Shown here in pieces: positions 24,914-53,508 of a DNA stretch of 64,000 nt (within the stretch, counting starts at the first letter, position 1; each line of letters opens with the position of its first letter). The notes beneath the pieces were generated by a model. It ran no database searches, had not been told where the DNA came from, and was given only the letters and a program-made list of their open reading frames with translations. The translations under genes were made by a program, and so were the position numbers. Origin of the DNA: Escherichia coli. GTDB lineage: Bacteria; Pseudomonadota; Gammaproteobacteria; Enterobacterales; Enterobacteriaceae. The stretch lies in NCBI RefSeq assembly GCF_045037415.1, contig NZ_CP173438.1; one strand, given 5' to 3'.

Positions 24914-25746
24914 TGTTTGCAGTTTCTTCAAGACGCGTGCTGCCGGGCTTTACCTTAAGCCTCGGCACCAGTCTGCTGTTTGTGTGCCTGATTTTGCTGC
25001 TGCCGCTCTCCGCGCTGGTGATGCAACTGGCCCAGATGAGCTGGGCGCAGTACTGGGAGGTGATCACCAACCCGCAGGTGGTCGCAGCCTATAAAGTGAC
25101 GCTGCTGTCGGCGTTTGTGGCATCGATTTTTAACGGCGTTTTCGGTCTGCTGATGGCGTGGATCTTAACCCGCTATCGCTTTCCGGGTCGCACGCTGCTT
25201 GATGCGCTGATGGATTTACCCTTTGCGCTGCCAACGGCAGTCGCCGGTTTAACGCTGGCCTCGCTCTTTTCCGTGAACGGTTTTTACGGTGAATGGCTGG
25301 CGAAGTTTGATATCAAAGTCACCTATACCTGGCTGGGGATTGCGGTGGCGATGGCCTTTACCAGCATTCCGTTTGTGGTGCGCACCGTGCAGCCGGTGCT
25401 GGAAGAGTTAGGCCCGGAATATGAAGAGGCGGCAGAAACGCTCGGCGCAACACGCTGGCAGAGTTTTCGCAAAGTGGTGCTGCCGGAACTATCTCCGGCA
25501 CTGGTGGCGGGTGTGGCGCTGTCGTTTACCCGCAGCCTCGGTGAGTTTGGCGCGGTGATTTTTATCGCCGGGAATATCGCCTGGAAAACAGAAGTGACGT
25601 CGCTGATGATCTTTGTTCGCTTACAGGAGTTTGATTACCCGGCGGCGAGCGCGATTGCCTCGGTGATCCTCGCGGCATCGCTGCTGTTGCTGTTCTCAAT
25701 TAACACTCTGCAAAGTCGCTTTGGTCGGCGTGTGGTAGGTCATTAA
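24913..25746 (+). CDS. cysU: sulfate/thiosulfate ABC transporter permease
   Basis: 277 aa; start overlaps cysP stop. Confidence 0.9.
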   Translation: MFAVSSRRVLPGFTLSLGTSLLFVCLILLLPLSALVMQLAQMSWAQYWEVITNPQVVAAYKVTLLSAFVASIFNGVFGLLMAWILTRYRFPGRTLLDALMDLPFALPTAVAGLTLASLFSVNGFYGEWLAKFDIKVTYTWLGIAVAMAFTSIPFVVRTVQPVLEELGPEYEEAAETLGATRWQSFRKVVLPELSPALVAGVALSFTRSLGEFGAVIFIAGNIAWKTEVTSLMIFVRLQEFDYPAASAIASVILAASLLLLFSINTLQSRFGRRVVGH

Positions 25747-26621
25747 TGGCGGAAGTGACACAATTGAAGCGTTATGACGCGCGCCCGATTAACTGGGGCA
25801 AATGGTTTCTGATTGGCATCGGGATGCTGGTATCGGCGTTCATCCTGCTGGTGCCGATGATTTATATCTTCGTACAGGCGTTCAGCAAAGGACTGATGCC
25901 GGTGTTACAAAATCTGGCCGATCCGGACATGCTGCACGCCATCTGGCTGACGGTGATGATCGCGCTGATTGCCGTACCGGTAAACCTGGTGTTCGGCATT
26001 CTGCTGGCCTGGCTGGTGACGCGCTTTAACTTCCCCGGACGCCAGCTATTGCTGACGCTGCTGGACATTCCGTTTGCCGTGTCGCCGGTGGTTGCTGGTC
26101 TGGTGTATCTGCTGTTCTACGGCTCTAACGGCCCGCTGGGCGGCTGGCTGGATGAACATAATCTGCAAATTATGTTCTCCTGGCCGGGTATGGTGCTGGT
26201 CACCATCTTCGTGACGTGTCCGTTTGTGGTGCGCGAACTGGTACCGGTAATGTTAAGTCAGGGCAGCCAGGAAGACGAAGCGGCGATTTTACTTGGCGCG
26301 TCCGGCTGGCAGATGTTCCGTCGCGTCACGCTGCCGAACATCCGCTGGGCGCTGCTTTACGGCGTGGTGCTGACCAACGCCCGCGCGATTGGCGAGTTTG
26401 GCGCGGTATCGGTGGTTTCCGGCTCGATTCGTGGCGAAACCCTGTCGCTGCCGTTACAGATTGAATTGCTGGAGCAGGACTACAACACCGTCGGCTCCTT
26501 TACCGCCGCCGCGTTGTTGACGCTGATGGCGATTATCACCCTGTTTTTAAAGAGTATGTTGCAGTGGCGCCTGGAAAATCAGGAAAAACGCGCGCAGCAG
26601 GAGGAACATCATGAGCATTGA
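25746..26621 (+). CDS. cysW: sulfate/thiosulfate ABC transporter permease
   Basis: 291 aa; start overlaps cysU stop. Confidence 0.9.
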
Positions 26622-27708
26622 GATTGCCAATATTAAGAAGTCTTTTGGTCGCACCCAGGTGCTGAACGATATCTCACTGGATATTCCTTCTGGTCAGATG
26701 GTCGCGTTGCTTGGGCCGTCCGGTTCCGGAAAAACTACGCTGCTGCGCATTATCGCCGGGCTGGAGCATCAAACCAGTGGGCATATTCGCTTTCACGGTA
26801 CCGACGTGAGCCGTCTGCACGCGCGGGACCGTAAAGTCGGTTTCGTGTTCCAGCATTACGCGCTGTTTCGCCATATGACGGTGTTTGACAATATCGCTTT
26901 TGGCCTGACGGTGTTGCCACGGCGTGAACGCCCGAATGCGGCGGCGATCAAAGCGAAAGTGACAAAATTGCTGGAGATGGTGCAGCTTGCTCATCTGGCG
27001 GATCGTTATCCGGCGCAGCTTTCCGGCGGTCAGAAACAGCGTGTGGCGCTTGCACGCGCGCTGGCTGTGGAACCGCAAATTTTGCTGCTTGATGAACCGT
27101 TTGGCGCGCTGGATGCGCAGGTGCGTAAAGAGCTGCGTCGCTGGCTGCGTCAACTGCATGAAGAACTGAAATTCACCAGCGTGTTCGTGACCCACGACCA
27201 GGAAGAGGCGACCGAAGTAGCTGATCGTGTAGTGGTGATGAGTCAGGGCAATATTGAACAAGCTGACGCACCGGATCAGGTATGGCGTGAACCGGCGACT
27301 CGTTTTGTGCTGGAGTTTATGGGCGAGGTAAACCGCCTGCAGGGAACCATTCGCGGCGGGCAGTTCCACGTTGGCGCACATCGCTGGCCGCTGGGATACA
27401 CCCCCGCGTATCAGGGGCCGGTGGATCTCTTCCTGCGCCCGTGGGAAGTGGATATCAGCCGCCGTACCAGCCTCGATTCGCCGCTACCCGTACAGGTACT
27501 GGAAGCCAGCCCGAAAGGTCACTACACCCAATTAGTGGTGCAGCCGCTGGGGTGGTACAACGAACCGCTGACGGTCGTGATGCATGGCGACGATGCCCCG
27601 CAGCGTGGCGATCGTTTATACGTTGGTCTGCAACATGCGCGGCTGTATAACGGCGATGAGCGTATTGAAACCCGCGATGAGGAACTTGCTCTCGCACAAA
27701 GCGCCTGA
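26611..27708 (+). CDS. cysA: sulfate/thiosulfate ABC transporter ATP-binding protein
   Basis: 365 aa; Walker [10 protein letters not shown] and ABC signature LSGGQKQR. Confidence 0.9.
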
Positions 27709-27730
27709 TAGGTTGAGTGAATGTTAAACG

Positions 27731-27761
27731 CCCGGAGGCGCTTCCCGCGATCCGGGTTTTT
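27731..27761 (+). terminator. hairpin (cccgga...tccggg) plus T6 between cysA and cysM; possible partial terminator
   Basis: Inverted repeat with T-run read directly; inside the cys operon so probably attenuating rather than fully terminating. Confidence 0.35.
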
Positions 27762-27783
27762 TAATGGCAAGGTTTTGTAACCT

Positions 27784-27820
27784 GTAGGTCTGATAAGACG
27801 CGTAAGCGTCGCATCAGGCA
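27784..27820. repeat. REP element
   Basis: gtaggtctgataagacgcgtaagcgtcgcatcaggca, canonical REP palindrome. Confidence 0.8.
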
Positions 27821-27842
27821 ACACCACGTATGGACAGAGATC

Positions 27843-28754
27843 GTGAGTACATTAGAACAAACAATAGGCAATACGCCTCTGGTGAAGTTGCAGCGAATGG
27901 CGCCGGATAACGGCAGTGAAGTGTGGTTAAAACTGGAAGGCAATAACCCGGCGGGATCGGTAAAAGACCGTGCGGCGCTTTCGATGATTGTCGAGGCGGA
28001 AAAGCGCGGCGAGATTAAACCGGGTGATGTGCTGATCGAAGCCACCAGTGGTAACACCGGCATTGCGCTGGCAATGATTGCGGCGCTTAAAGGCTATCGC
28101 ATGAAATTGCTGATGCCCGACAACATGAGCCAGGAACGCCGTGCGGCGATGCGTGCCTACGGTGCAGAACTGATTCTGGTCACCAAAGAACAGGGCATGG
28201 AAGGCGCACGCGATCTGGCGCTGGAGATGGCGAATCGCGGCGAAGGAAAGTTGCTCGATCAGTTCAATAATCCCGATAACCCTTACGCCCATTACACCAC
28301 TACCGGGCCGGAAATCTGGCAGCAAACTGGCGGGCGTATTACCCATTTTGTCTCCAGCATGGGAACAACCGGCACTATCACCGGCGTGTCACGCTTTATG
28401 CGCGAACAATCCAAACCGGTGACCATTGTTGGCCTGCAGCCGGAAGAAGGCAGCAGTATTCCCGGCATTCGCCGCTGGCCTGCGGAATATCTGCCGGGGA
28501 TTTTCAATGCTTCTCTGGTGGATGAGGTGCTGGATATTCATCAGCGCGATGCGGAAAACACCATGCGCGAACTGGCAGTGCGGGAAGGGATTTTCTGCGG
28601 CGTAAGCTCCGGCGGCGCGGTTGCCGGAGCACTGCGGGTGGCAAAAGCTAACCCTGGCGCGGTGGTGGTGGCGATCATCTGCGATCGTGGCGATCGCTAC
28701 CTTTCTACCGGGGTGTTTGGGGAAGAGCATTTTAGCCAGGGGGCGGGGATTTAA
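27843..28754 (+). CDS. cysM: cysteine synthase B (O-acetylserine sulfhydrylase B)
   Basis: 303 aa PLP-dependent family. Confidence 0.9.
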   Translation: MSTLEQTIGNTPLVKLQRMAPDNGSEVWLKLEGNNPAGSVKDRAALSMIVEAEKRGEIKPGDVLIEATSGNTGIALAMIAALKGYRMKLLMPDNMSQERRAAMRAYGAELILVTKEQGMEGARDLALEMANRGEGKLLDQFNNPDNPYAHYTTTGPEIWQQTGGRITHFVSSMGTTGTITGVSRFMREQSKPVTIVGLQPEEGSSIPGIRRWPAEYLPGIFNASLVDEVLDIHQRDAENTMRELAVREGIFCGVSSGGAVAGALRVAKANPGAVVVAIICDRGDRYLSTGVFGEEHFSQGAGI

Positions 28755-53419: not shown

Positions 53420-53508
53420 GGCGGATGCGGCGTAAATGCTTTATCCGCCCTACGCGTTAAAGAGCTGGTTTGTAGGCCTGATAAGACGCGCTAGCGTCGC
53501 ATCAGGCA
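53420..53508. repeat. BIME (pair of REP palindromes) downstream of mntH
   Basis: ggcggatgcggcgtaaatgctttatccgccctacg and gtaggcctgataagacgcgctagcgtcgcatcaggca. Confidence 0.8.

Follow-up and report, generated by a model that had tools for sequence, protein, structure and literature searches.

In E. coli, ampC is transcribed from a promoter located within the frd operon, whose terminator serves as the ampC attenuator (PMC11838884). The promoter of the downstream gene is placed in the 3' end of the upstream operon, and the intrinsic terminator of this operon falls between the transcription start and the start codon of the downstream gene. The same layout is seen in the cysPUWA-cysM cluster, with a candidate promoter in the end of cysA and a terminator-like hairpin in the cysM leader (51 of 68 loci). 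The geometry is nearly identical, with the ampC attenuator at +17 to +37 and the cys hairpin at +10 to +37, and by analogy the latter may also act as an attenuator. In contrast to frdD-ampC, the cys units are functionally related and cysM is also counted as the last gene of the operon. Moreover, the cys promoter takes the TG of its extended -10 element from the upstream stop codon, and the E. coli cys leader has an extra REP element.

Two further systems resemble parts of this locus. Intra-operon Rho-independent terminators with partial read-through also combine a GC-rich stem with a U-tract just past a stop codon, the downstream gene still being expressed, and pervasive read-through of terminators has been documented genome-wide (PMC6131387). 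Unlike the usual terminators of this kind, the cys stem is interrupted (7 bp plus 3 bp, with bulges) and has a promoter immediately upstream. The second system is formed by the REP/BIME elements (Z-type PU; malE-malF), with which the cys REP shares a 36-bp imperfect palindrome, a GTAG tail, an extragenic position, a multicopy nature and a stable RNA hairpin. It differs from these elements in being single, with no BIME pair, and in its lack of conservation outside Escherichia. In addition, it is located past the terminator U-tract, in a 5' UTR, where it cannot protect the terminated upstream mRNA. Each component of the cysA-cysM architecture is a known kind of element in an arrangement with textbook precedent, and no known principle is overturned by these findings.

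In the standard annotation, cysPUWAM is one CysB-controlled operon. It is given as such in PMC3082872 and PMC12800425, and cysPUWA and cysM are listed separately in PMC4705995. The analysis presented here suggests that the cysA-cysM spacer probably joins two overlapping transcription units, comprising a cysM promoter of its own, a terminator/attenuator, a passenger REP and a weakly translated cysM.

The cysA-cysM spacer and its terminator-like hairpin

The window, a stretch of 64,000 nucleotides of E. coli DNA, carries the cysPUWA-cysM cluster on its plus strand, with 100% identity to several E. coli chromosomes and ~97% to K-12 MG1655. Gene names follow the RefSeq annotation of E. coli records that are identical or nearly so. 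According to the list of open reading frames, the cluster starts with cysP (23897-24913), the first gene of the operon, annotated as a thiosulfate/sulfate-binding protein. It is followed by cysU (24913-25746), cysW (25746-26621) and the sulfate/thiosulfate ABC transporter ATPase gene cysA (26611-27708, with the TGA stop at 27706-27708). These four genes overlap or abut, and the sole gap in the cluster separates cysA from cysM (27843-28754), which encodes cysteine synthase B and begins with GTG; RefSeq agrees with the list for both of these genes.

The initial annotation described this gap as a 134-bp spacer containing a terminator-like hairpin and a REP, a description borne out by the coordinates (27709-27842), the predicted folds and the match to the REP consensus. 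The whole spacer is present at a coverage of at least 80% in 5,421 of 5,426 complete E. coli genomes, and the sampled E. coli alleles differ by point changes only. At its end, a weak purine-rich Shine-Dalgarno-like stretch (GGACAGAG) can be read from the sequence, which together with the gap to the cysM start occupies 27832-27842 (plus strand). For comparison, 80 loci encoding CysM relatives were collected from species-representative genomes, and spacers were taken from the 59 loci in which cysA was found upstream. Among the extracted loci, no spacer is shorter than 50 nt, and lengths of 66-72 nt are the most common. The cysM start codon is GTG in nearly all related loci.

The hairpin is located at 27730-27757 on the plus strand and has the form GCCCGGA-GGCGCUUCCCGCGA-UCCGGGU, in which a 7-bp stem and an inner 3-bp stem are interrupted by bulges. 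Its folding energy is about -16 to -17 kcal/mol. A T-run follows directly 3' of the hairpin (27757-27762, plus strand), being T6 in this strain and a C plus T5 in K-12, where the C at 27757 provides one extra G-C pair in the hairpin and leaves a U5 tract. The five T columns of this run are invariant across 14 aligned sequences. The built-in terminator scan of the window did not call the hairpin, because its formal loop measures 14 nt. Taken alone, the fold is ordinary for its composition (z = -1.7), as 13 of 200 shuffled sequences fold equally well. The significance of the hairpin is based on its conservation, not on its stability.

This conservation is extensive. A single hairpin of at most -12 kcal/mol with a T-run directly after it, counted in spacers of up to 240 nt, precedes the cysM start in 47 of 54 Enterobacterales spacers versus 63 of 1080 dinucleotide shuffles (5.8%). 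In spacers free of insertions, the hairpin ends 17-40 nt upstream of the cysM GTG. No variation in the stem arms GCCCGG/CCGGGC is seen among Escherichia, Pseudocitrobacter, Citrobacter and Lelliottia, and at least ten unrelated stem sequences occupy the same spacer position in the loci studied. Among these are GCCCGG..CCGGGC in Escherichia, Citrobacter and Enterobacter, GCGGCC..GGCCGC in Cedecea, Siccibacter and Shimwellia, GGGCGGG..CCCGCCC in Pantoea and Mixta, GGCAACCC..GGGTTGCC in Serratia and CAGCCTGG..CCAGGCTG in Tatumella, further stems being present in other lineages. Judged from these alignments, it is the structure and position of the hairpin that are conserved, not its sequence. The element has the characteristics of a Rho-independent terminator, namely a GC-rich stem-loop followed by a U-tract, with the structure kept at the same position in relatives, and transcription is inferred to end at the U-tract.

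An anti-terminator pairing of the last cysA codons (27692-27706) with the hairpin loop (27736-27750), used in the minimum free energy structure, was considered and rejected, the complementary bases not being kept in Citrobacter. The hairpin is present as a single copy within the window, and its Citrobacter and Enterobacter homologs have no further copies within their 7-kb loci. These homologs resemble the local REP type, with CTAC/GTAG tails and inverted pairs, and the single Citrobacter hairpin, GCCCGGTGGCGCTACGCTTACCGGGC, equals the second Enterobacter REP-like element minus its tail. The sequence likeness suggests that the terminator may be derived from a REP, or else may be a target of REP insertion.

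Larger insertions are also found at this site. The spacers of two Yersinia loci (L035 and L038) and of Serratia plymuthica (L051) measure 227-233 nt and contain an insert of ~150 nt with a common core, ..GGGCGCTCCG.CGGC..GCCG.TACGACCC.. In S. plymuthica, a copy of the terminator hairpin, GGCAACCCCAGGGTTGCC, stands on either side of the insert. A small mobile element may thus have entered at the terminator.

A candidate cysM promoter across the cysA stop codon

A candidate promoter for cysM was identified at 27686-27714. Its -35-like hexamer, TTGCTC (27686-27691, plus strand), is embedded in the last cysA codons and is separated by exactly 17 bp from an extended -10 element, TG-a-TAGGTT (27706-27714, plus strand). 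The TG of the latter is provided by the cysA TGA stop and its hexamer occupies 27709-27714. A TGn preceding a hexamer with T1, A2 and T6, with a -35-like hexamer at 17 bp, is the signature of a sigma-70 extended -10 promoter, and the site is therefore considered a candidate for such a promoter, overlapping the cysA stop. The reported interval of 27731-27820 does not contain it, as the candidate is situated upstream of the hairpin. In genera that lack the REP, the start codon follows the T-run after only ~20 nt, too short a stretch for a promoter downstream of the terminator.

The aligned cysA 3' ends show the conserved pattern xTT GCx xTx GCx xAx xCx GCC TGA / TA[GAT][GCT]TT. Of 36 genus representatives, 27 retain TTG at the -35 offset, or TAGACC in lineages of the Cedecea type, and 26 have all three promoter elements at the exact spacing. 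The TAnnTT directly after the stop is the only conserved non-coding block in these representatives. Its non-coding T, A, T and T carry 1.1-1.2 bits each, compared to at most 0.43 for any of the next 34 positions. Three genus representatives use a TAA stop (Proteus, Hafnia and Moellerella), and all of them are without the -10 motif. A tandem stop or a stop-codon context was rejected as the cause of TAnnTT: the TAT of Pantoea, Erwinia and Tatumella is not a stop, and T5 and T6 are conserved too.

In 51 of 68 loci, the composite motif falls within the 400 nt preceding cysM, the window background being 9e-5 per position. It is also present in five loci where another gene than cysA is located upstream (L010, L019, L020 and the Rahnella loci L032 and L034). 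The hairpin and T-run still follow the motif in four of these five, the four in which the upstream sequence was read. As the motif is present where cysA is not upstream, a coding constraint on CysA cannot explain its conservation.

In L010 (Kluyvera genomosp. 1), L019 (Enterobacter sp. ENT03) and L020 (Enterobacteriaceae RIT691), cysA is replaced upstream of cysM by an alpha-L-rhamnosidase gene with Pfam Bac_rhamnosid domains (237-2927, 3-2339 and 141-2930 of these loci, respectively). The last rhamnosidase codons of L010 and L020, GTAGACCTGACC.ACG.AGAC TGA, continue into the promoter motif and may preserve a remnant of the old cysA 3' end.

The core hexamers of the E. coli site each match the consensus in three of six positions. 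The built-in promoter scan made no call at 27686-27714, because these hexamers are too weak for its rule. Using an approximate position weight matrix, the candidate scores 5.66, and the best scores of random 560-nt tiles drawn from the window have a higher median. A text search of the literature retrieved no described cysM promoter for E. coli or Salmonella.

Based on the motif, a start at 27720-27722 (~2539704 in K-12) was predicted before transcript data were examined. SMRT-Cappable-seq (Yan et al. 2018, PMC6131387, Supplementary Data 2) lists cysM alone as operon 'b2421', of class 'novel', with its transcription start at 2539704 on the reverse strand of NC_000913.3. The predicted base and the observed start coincide exactly, 2539704 being window position 27721 (plus strand), the A and first base of an ATG. 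This 5'-triphosphate start, from a single dataset, is positioned 7 nt past the -10 hexamer, within the 6-8 nt of sigma-70 promoters. The operons of this study are derived from full-length, 5'-triphosphate-enriched reads of MG1655 grown in M9 and rich medium. In the same table, cysPUWA ('b2425|b2424|b2423|b2422', start at 2543558) is assigned to the class 'ShorterEnd', in which the first gene is that of the RegulonDB operon, cysPUWAM, and the end is inside the operon. A full-length cysPUWAM unit is not among its cys operon rows. The 'ShorterEnd' class is indirect support for termination at the U-tract, but it could reflect the under-sampling of 5-kb molecules.

Yan et al. 2018 also contains a ucpA-cysP unit (b2426|b2425) from the ucpA start site (K-12 NC_000913.3, 2544664), which implies read-through from ucpA into the cys operon. 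A different start was assigned to cysM by Kim et al. 2012 (PMC3415461, supplement), at 2537789(-) in U00096.2 coordinates and with four reads. It maps to window position 27658, and 27721 is absent from their list of start sites. This minor start is found 7 nt after the TATAAC of a weak secondary promoter-like site within cysA (27623-27658, plus strand; TTGGTC, 17 bp, TATAAC), the top match of the approximate weight matrix scan and not above the window background.

A search of published supplements for RNA 3' ends at the U-tract gave none: cysA and cysM are missing from those of Adams 2021, and the termination site table of Yan 2018 is empty at 25396xx-25397xx. The searched supplements of Ettwiller 2016 list nothing for the cysA-cysM locus. 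In the transcriptome of an APEC lsrR mutant, cysUWA are up ~9-fold and cysM is unchanged (PMC13393413). The same data show cysP to be unchanged as well, which is odd for an operon-wide effect.

According to the initial annotation, attenuation and/or a promoter of its own would partly uncouple cysM from the cysPUWA genes. This interpretation is partly supported: its core is correct, and its anatomy is not. The cysM-only unit with its own 5' end, the 'ShorterEnd' cysPUWA unit, the APEC data and the conserved hairpin all point in its direction. It was to fall if read-through across the spacer were equal and cysM had no independent 5' end; the end provided by SMRT-Cappable-seq speaks against such a refutation.

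Two probable overlapping transcription units and competing readings

In the arrangement proposed here, the promoter formed by the last cysA codons and the TGA stop would start the cysM transcript at A27721, resulting in a 5' UTR of 122 nt in this strain. The hairpin and U-tract (27730-27762), beginning 9 nt past this start, would end most CysB-dependent transcripts from the cysP promoter, yielding the cysPUWA mRNA. Since the cysM start is upstream of the hairpin, cysM transcripts must read through the terminator too. Any cysM transcript has to pass the hairpin in every lineage, and the hairpin within the cysM leader would act as an attenuator for transcripts of both promoters. The output of cysM would then equal the sum of the cysP-promoter flux and the cysM-promoter flux, multiplied by the read-through. 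Its input would be composed of a basal, promoter-specific part and a fraction of the induced operon flux. The weak Shine-Dalgarno sequence and the GTG start would hold cysM translation modest. The module of a promoter over the stop, a proximal terminator and cysM is conserved in the Enterobacteriaceae, Erwiniaceae and Yersiniaceae.

The same elements could also be read within a single operon, cysPUWAM, as given in RegulonDB and in the two studies cited above for it. The hairpin and REP would then be only post-transcriptional barriers to 3'-to-5' exonucleases, following the malE-malF paradigm, with the cysPUWA segment outliving cysM and the start at 27721 representing noise. Both hairpins are stable, the promoter hexamers are weak, and REP-containing malEF RNA is known to need RhlB for its degradation by PNPase (PMC4705995). 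However, an exonuclease barrier needs no U-tract, yet the T-run is conserved. The REP is missing from most genera and, being located past the T-run, is not present on terminated transcripts. Furthermore, the -10 motif is conserved in non-coding DNA and travels with cysM where cysA is not upstream, and the mapped 5'-triphosphate end coincides with the predicted base. Altogether, a single operon with such barriers seems unlikely.

The two overlapping units could, in addition, be under a more elaborate control. The module might constitute a dedicated, regulated cysM attenuator, in which read-through is set by the promoter that fired, in E. coli possibly via ribosome loading on the 5' AUG, and which gives cysM a programme independent of CysB. 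We regard this as distinctly unlikely. Its stricter form, in which the hairpin works as a regulated attenuator of the cysM-promoter transcript alone and is melted by ribosomes on the 5'-terminal AUG at 27721, making read-through a function of the start site, or responds to a factor or to NTP sensing, is highly improbable. The mapped start is indeed the A of an ATG whose reading frame runs through the hairpin, the order of promoter, terminator and cysM is kept where cysA is not upstream, and start-site-dependent read-through has been described in the same dataset (PMC6131387). Against this, the ATG is replaced by ATC in E. albertii and by ATA in C. werkmanii and E. cloacae, meets an immediate stop in P. 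faecalis (ATG-TAA), and is absent in Cedecea, Pantoea and Serratia. The end of the reading frame varies among E. coli alleles by an indel, and the leader before the hairpin is unconserved and only 4-20 nt long, leaving no room for a sensor. Attenuation by a leader peptide or a leaderless reading frame involves a conserved leader ORF over the terminator, whereas the start-site ATG is found in E. coli only. In the window, the ATG at 27721 opens a 19-codon reading frame across the hairpin, MLNARRRFPRSGFFNGKVL (27721-27780), which has 21 codons in K-12 (1-nt indel).

A distinct role of CysM in thiosulfate assimilation had been offered as the rationale for the uncoupling of cysM. This rationale is weak, because cysP is annotated as thiosulfate/sulfate-binding and CysM uses thiosulfate.

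If cysM indeed has a conserved promoter of its own behind a leaky terminator, the activity of the cysP promoter does not predict cysM expression. Polar effects and operon-level engineering, e.g., in cysteine or methionine production strains, would then need re-thinking, and there would be a simple explanation for reports in which cysM behaves unlike cysUWA. The locus would also represent a second, widely conserved case of operon overlap of the frd-ampC type. As far as we found, the cysM start is known solely as a row in a supplementary table, and the conservation of the promoter and attenuator in three enterobacterial families is apparently undescribed.

The REP element in the cysM leader

A single Z-type REP is located at 27784-27819 on the minus strand, its GTAG tail being visible on the plus strand at 27784-27787. 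Over 34 specified bases, it has one mismatch to the Z-type REP/PU consensus, and no match was obtained in 100 shuffles. Its hairpin is the most stable local structure (-20.4 kcal/mol, z = -5.3). The consensus match including the GTAG/CTAC tail, the multicopy nature and the extragenic position between two coding sequences all correspond to a Z-type REP. A BIME would consist of two inverted REPs with a defined linker, whereas both E. coli and E. albertii have one REP. In an Rfam search, the REP gave a half-length, sub-threshold match to the REP-derived naRNA4; this was the sole relevant match, and no known sRNA or riboswitch was detected. A megablast of the spacer hit a median of two, and up to 11, places per genome.

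The number of REPs at this site is 0, 1 or 2, depending on the genus. E. coli and E. albertii share one fixed Z-type copy. Citrobacter and Lelliottia possess the E. coli hairpin and no REP, the whole block of 66-68 nt being missing. Pseudocitrobacter faecalis has two REPs that differ in type and orientation. This variable copy number places the REP outside the conserved design, and its presence appears incidental. It is best read, on comparative grounds, as a lineage-specific insertion into a permissive site in the cysM 5' UTR. Since it is downstream of the U-tract, it would be missing from terminated cysPUWA RNA and confined to the cysM 5' UTR. As an insertion of the Escherichia lineage, it most probably is a near-neutral passenger, and at most it would be an RNA-stability hairpin on read-through transcripts. 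REPs can thus apparently settle in terminator-proximal leaders, outside the conserved logic.

In the predicted fold of the cysM leader (z = -3.8), both hairpins are retained and the start-codon region is paired. At 27823-27848, CCACGUAU, just 3' of the REP, is modelled to pair with AUCGUGAG, which includes the GUG start, and this pairing could dampen cysM translation. That the REP is a functional cysM regulator in E. coli, through Rho-dependent attenuation, protein binding or the pairing of its right flank with the cysM start, is nevertheless very doubtful: its fixation in the E. coli genomes counted above and in E. albertii, its stability and the modelled pairing of the start region fit such a role, but an old neutral insertion is also expected to be fixed within one species, and in other genera the same promoter-terminator module is accompanied at this site by two REPs, by REPs differing in type and orientation, or by none, which indicates turnover and not a conserved role.

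The Escherichia-specific block that contains the REP (27763-27834) is bounded by AATGG (27763-27767) and TATGG (27830-27834), and in relatives without the REP, one A(A/T)TGG-like site stands in place of the block. The two motifs may be a target-site duplication, or may be due to chance. The left flank of the REP is predicted to form a small 5-bp hairpin, AGGUU-UUGU-AACCU (27770-27783, plus strand), which falls within the block absent from Citrobacter and Lelliottia. Spacers of the Enterobacter type contain an inverted REP-like pair with CTAC and GTAG tails, the second member of which forms, together with the T-run, the terminator-like hairpin. Such pairs were found in L014, L015, L016, L018 and L050 (at about 2900-2985), and L003, L011 and L017 are similar. 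Elsewhere in the window, a second Z-type REP is present at 53472-53507 on the minus strand, with a perfect match to the consensus.
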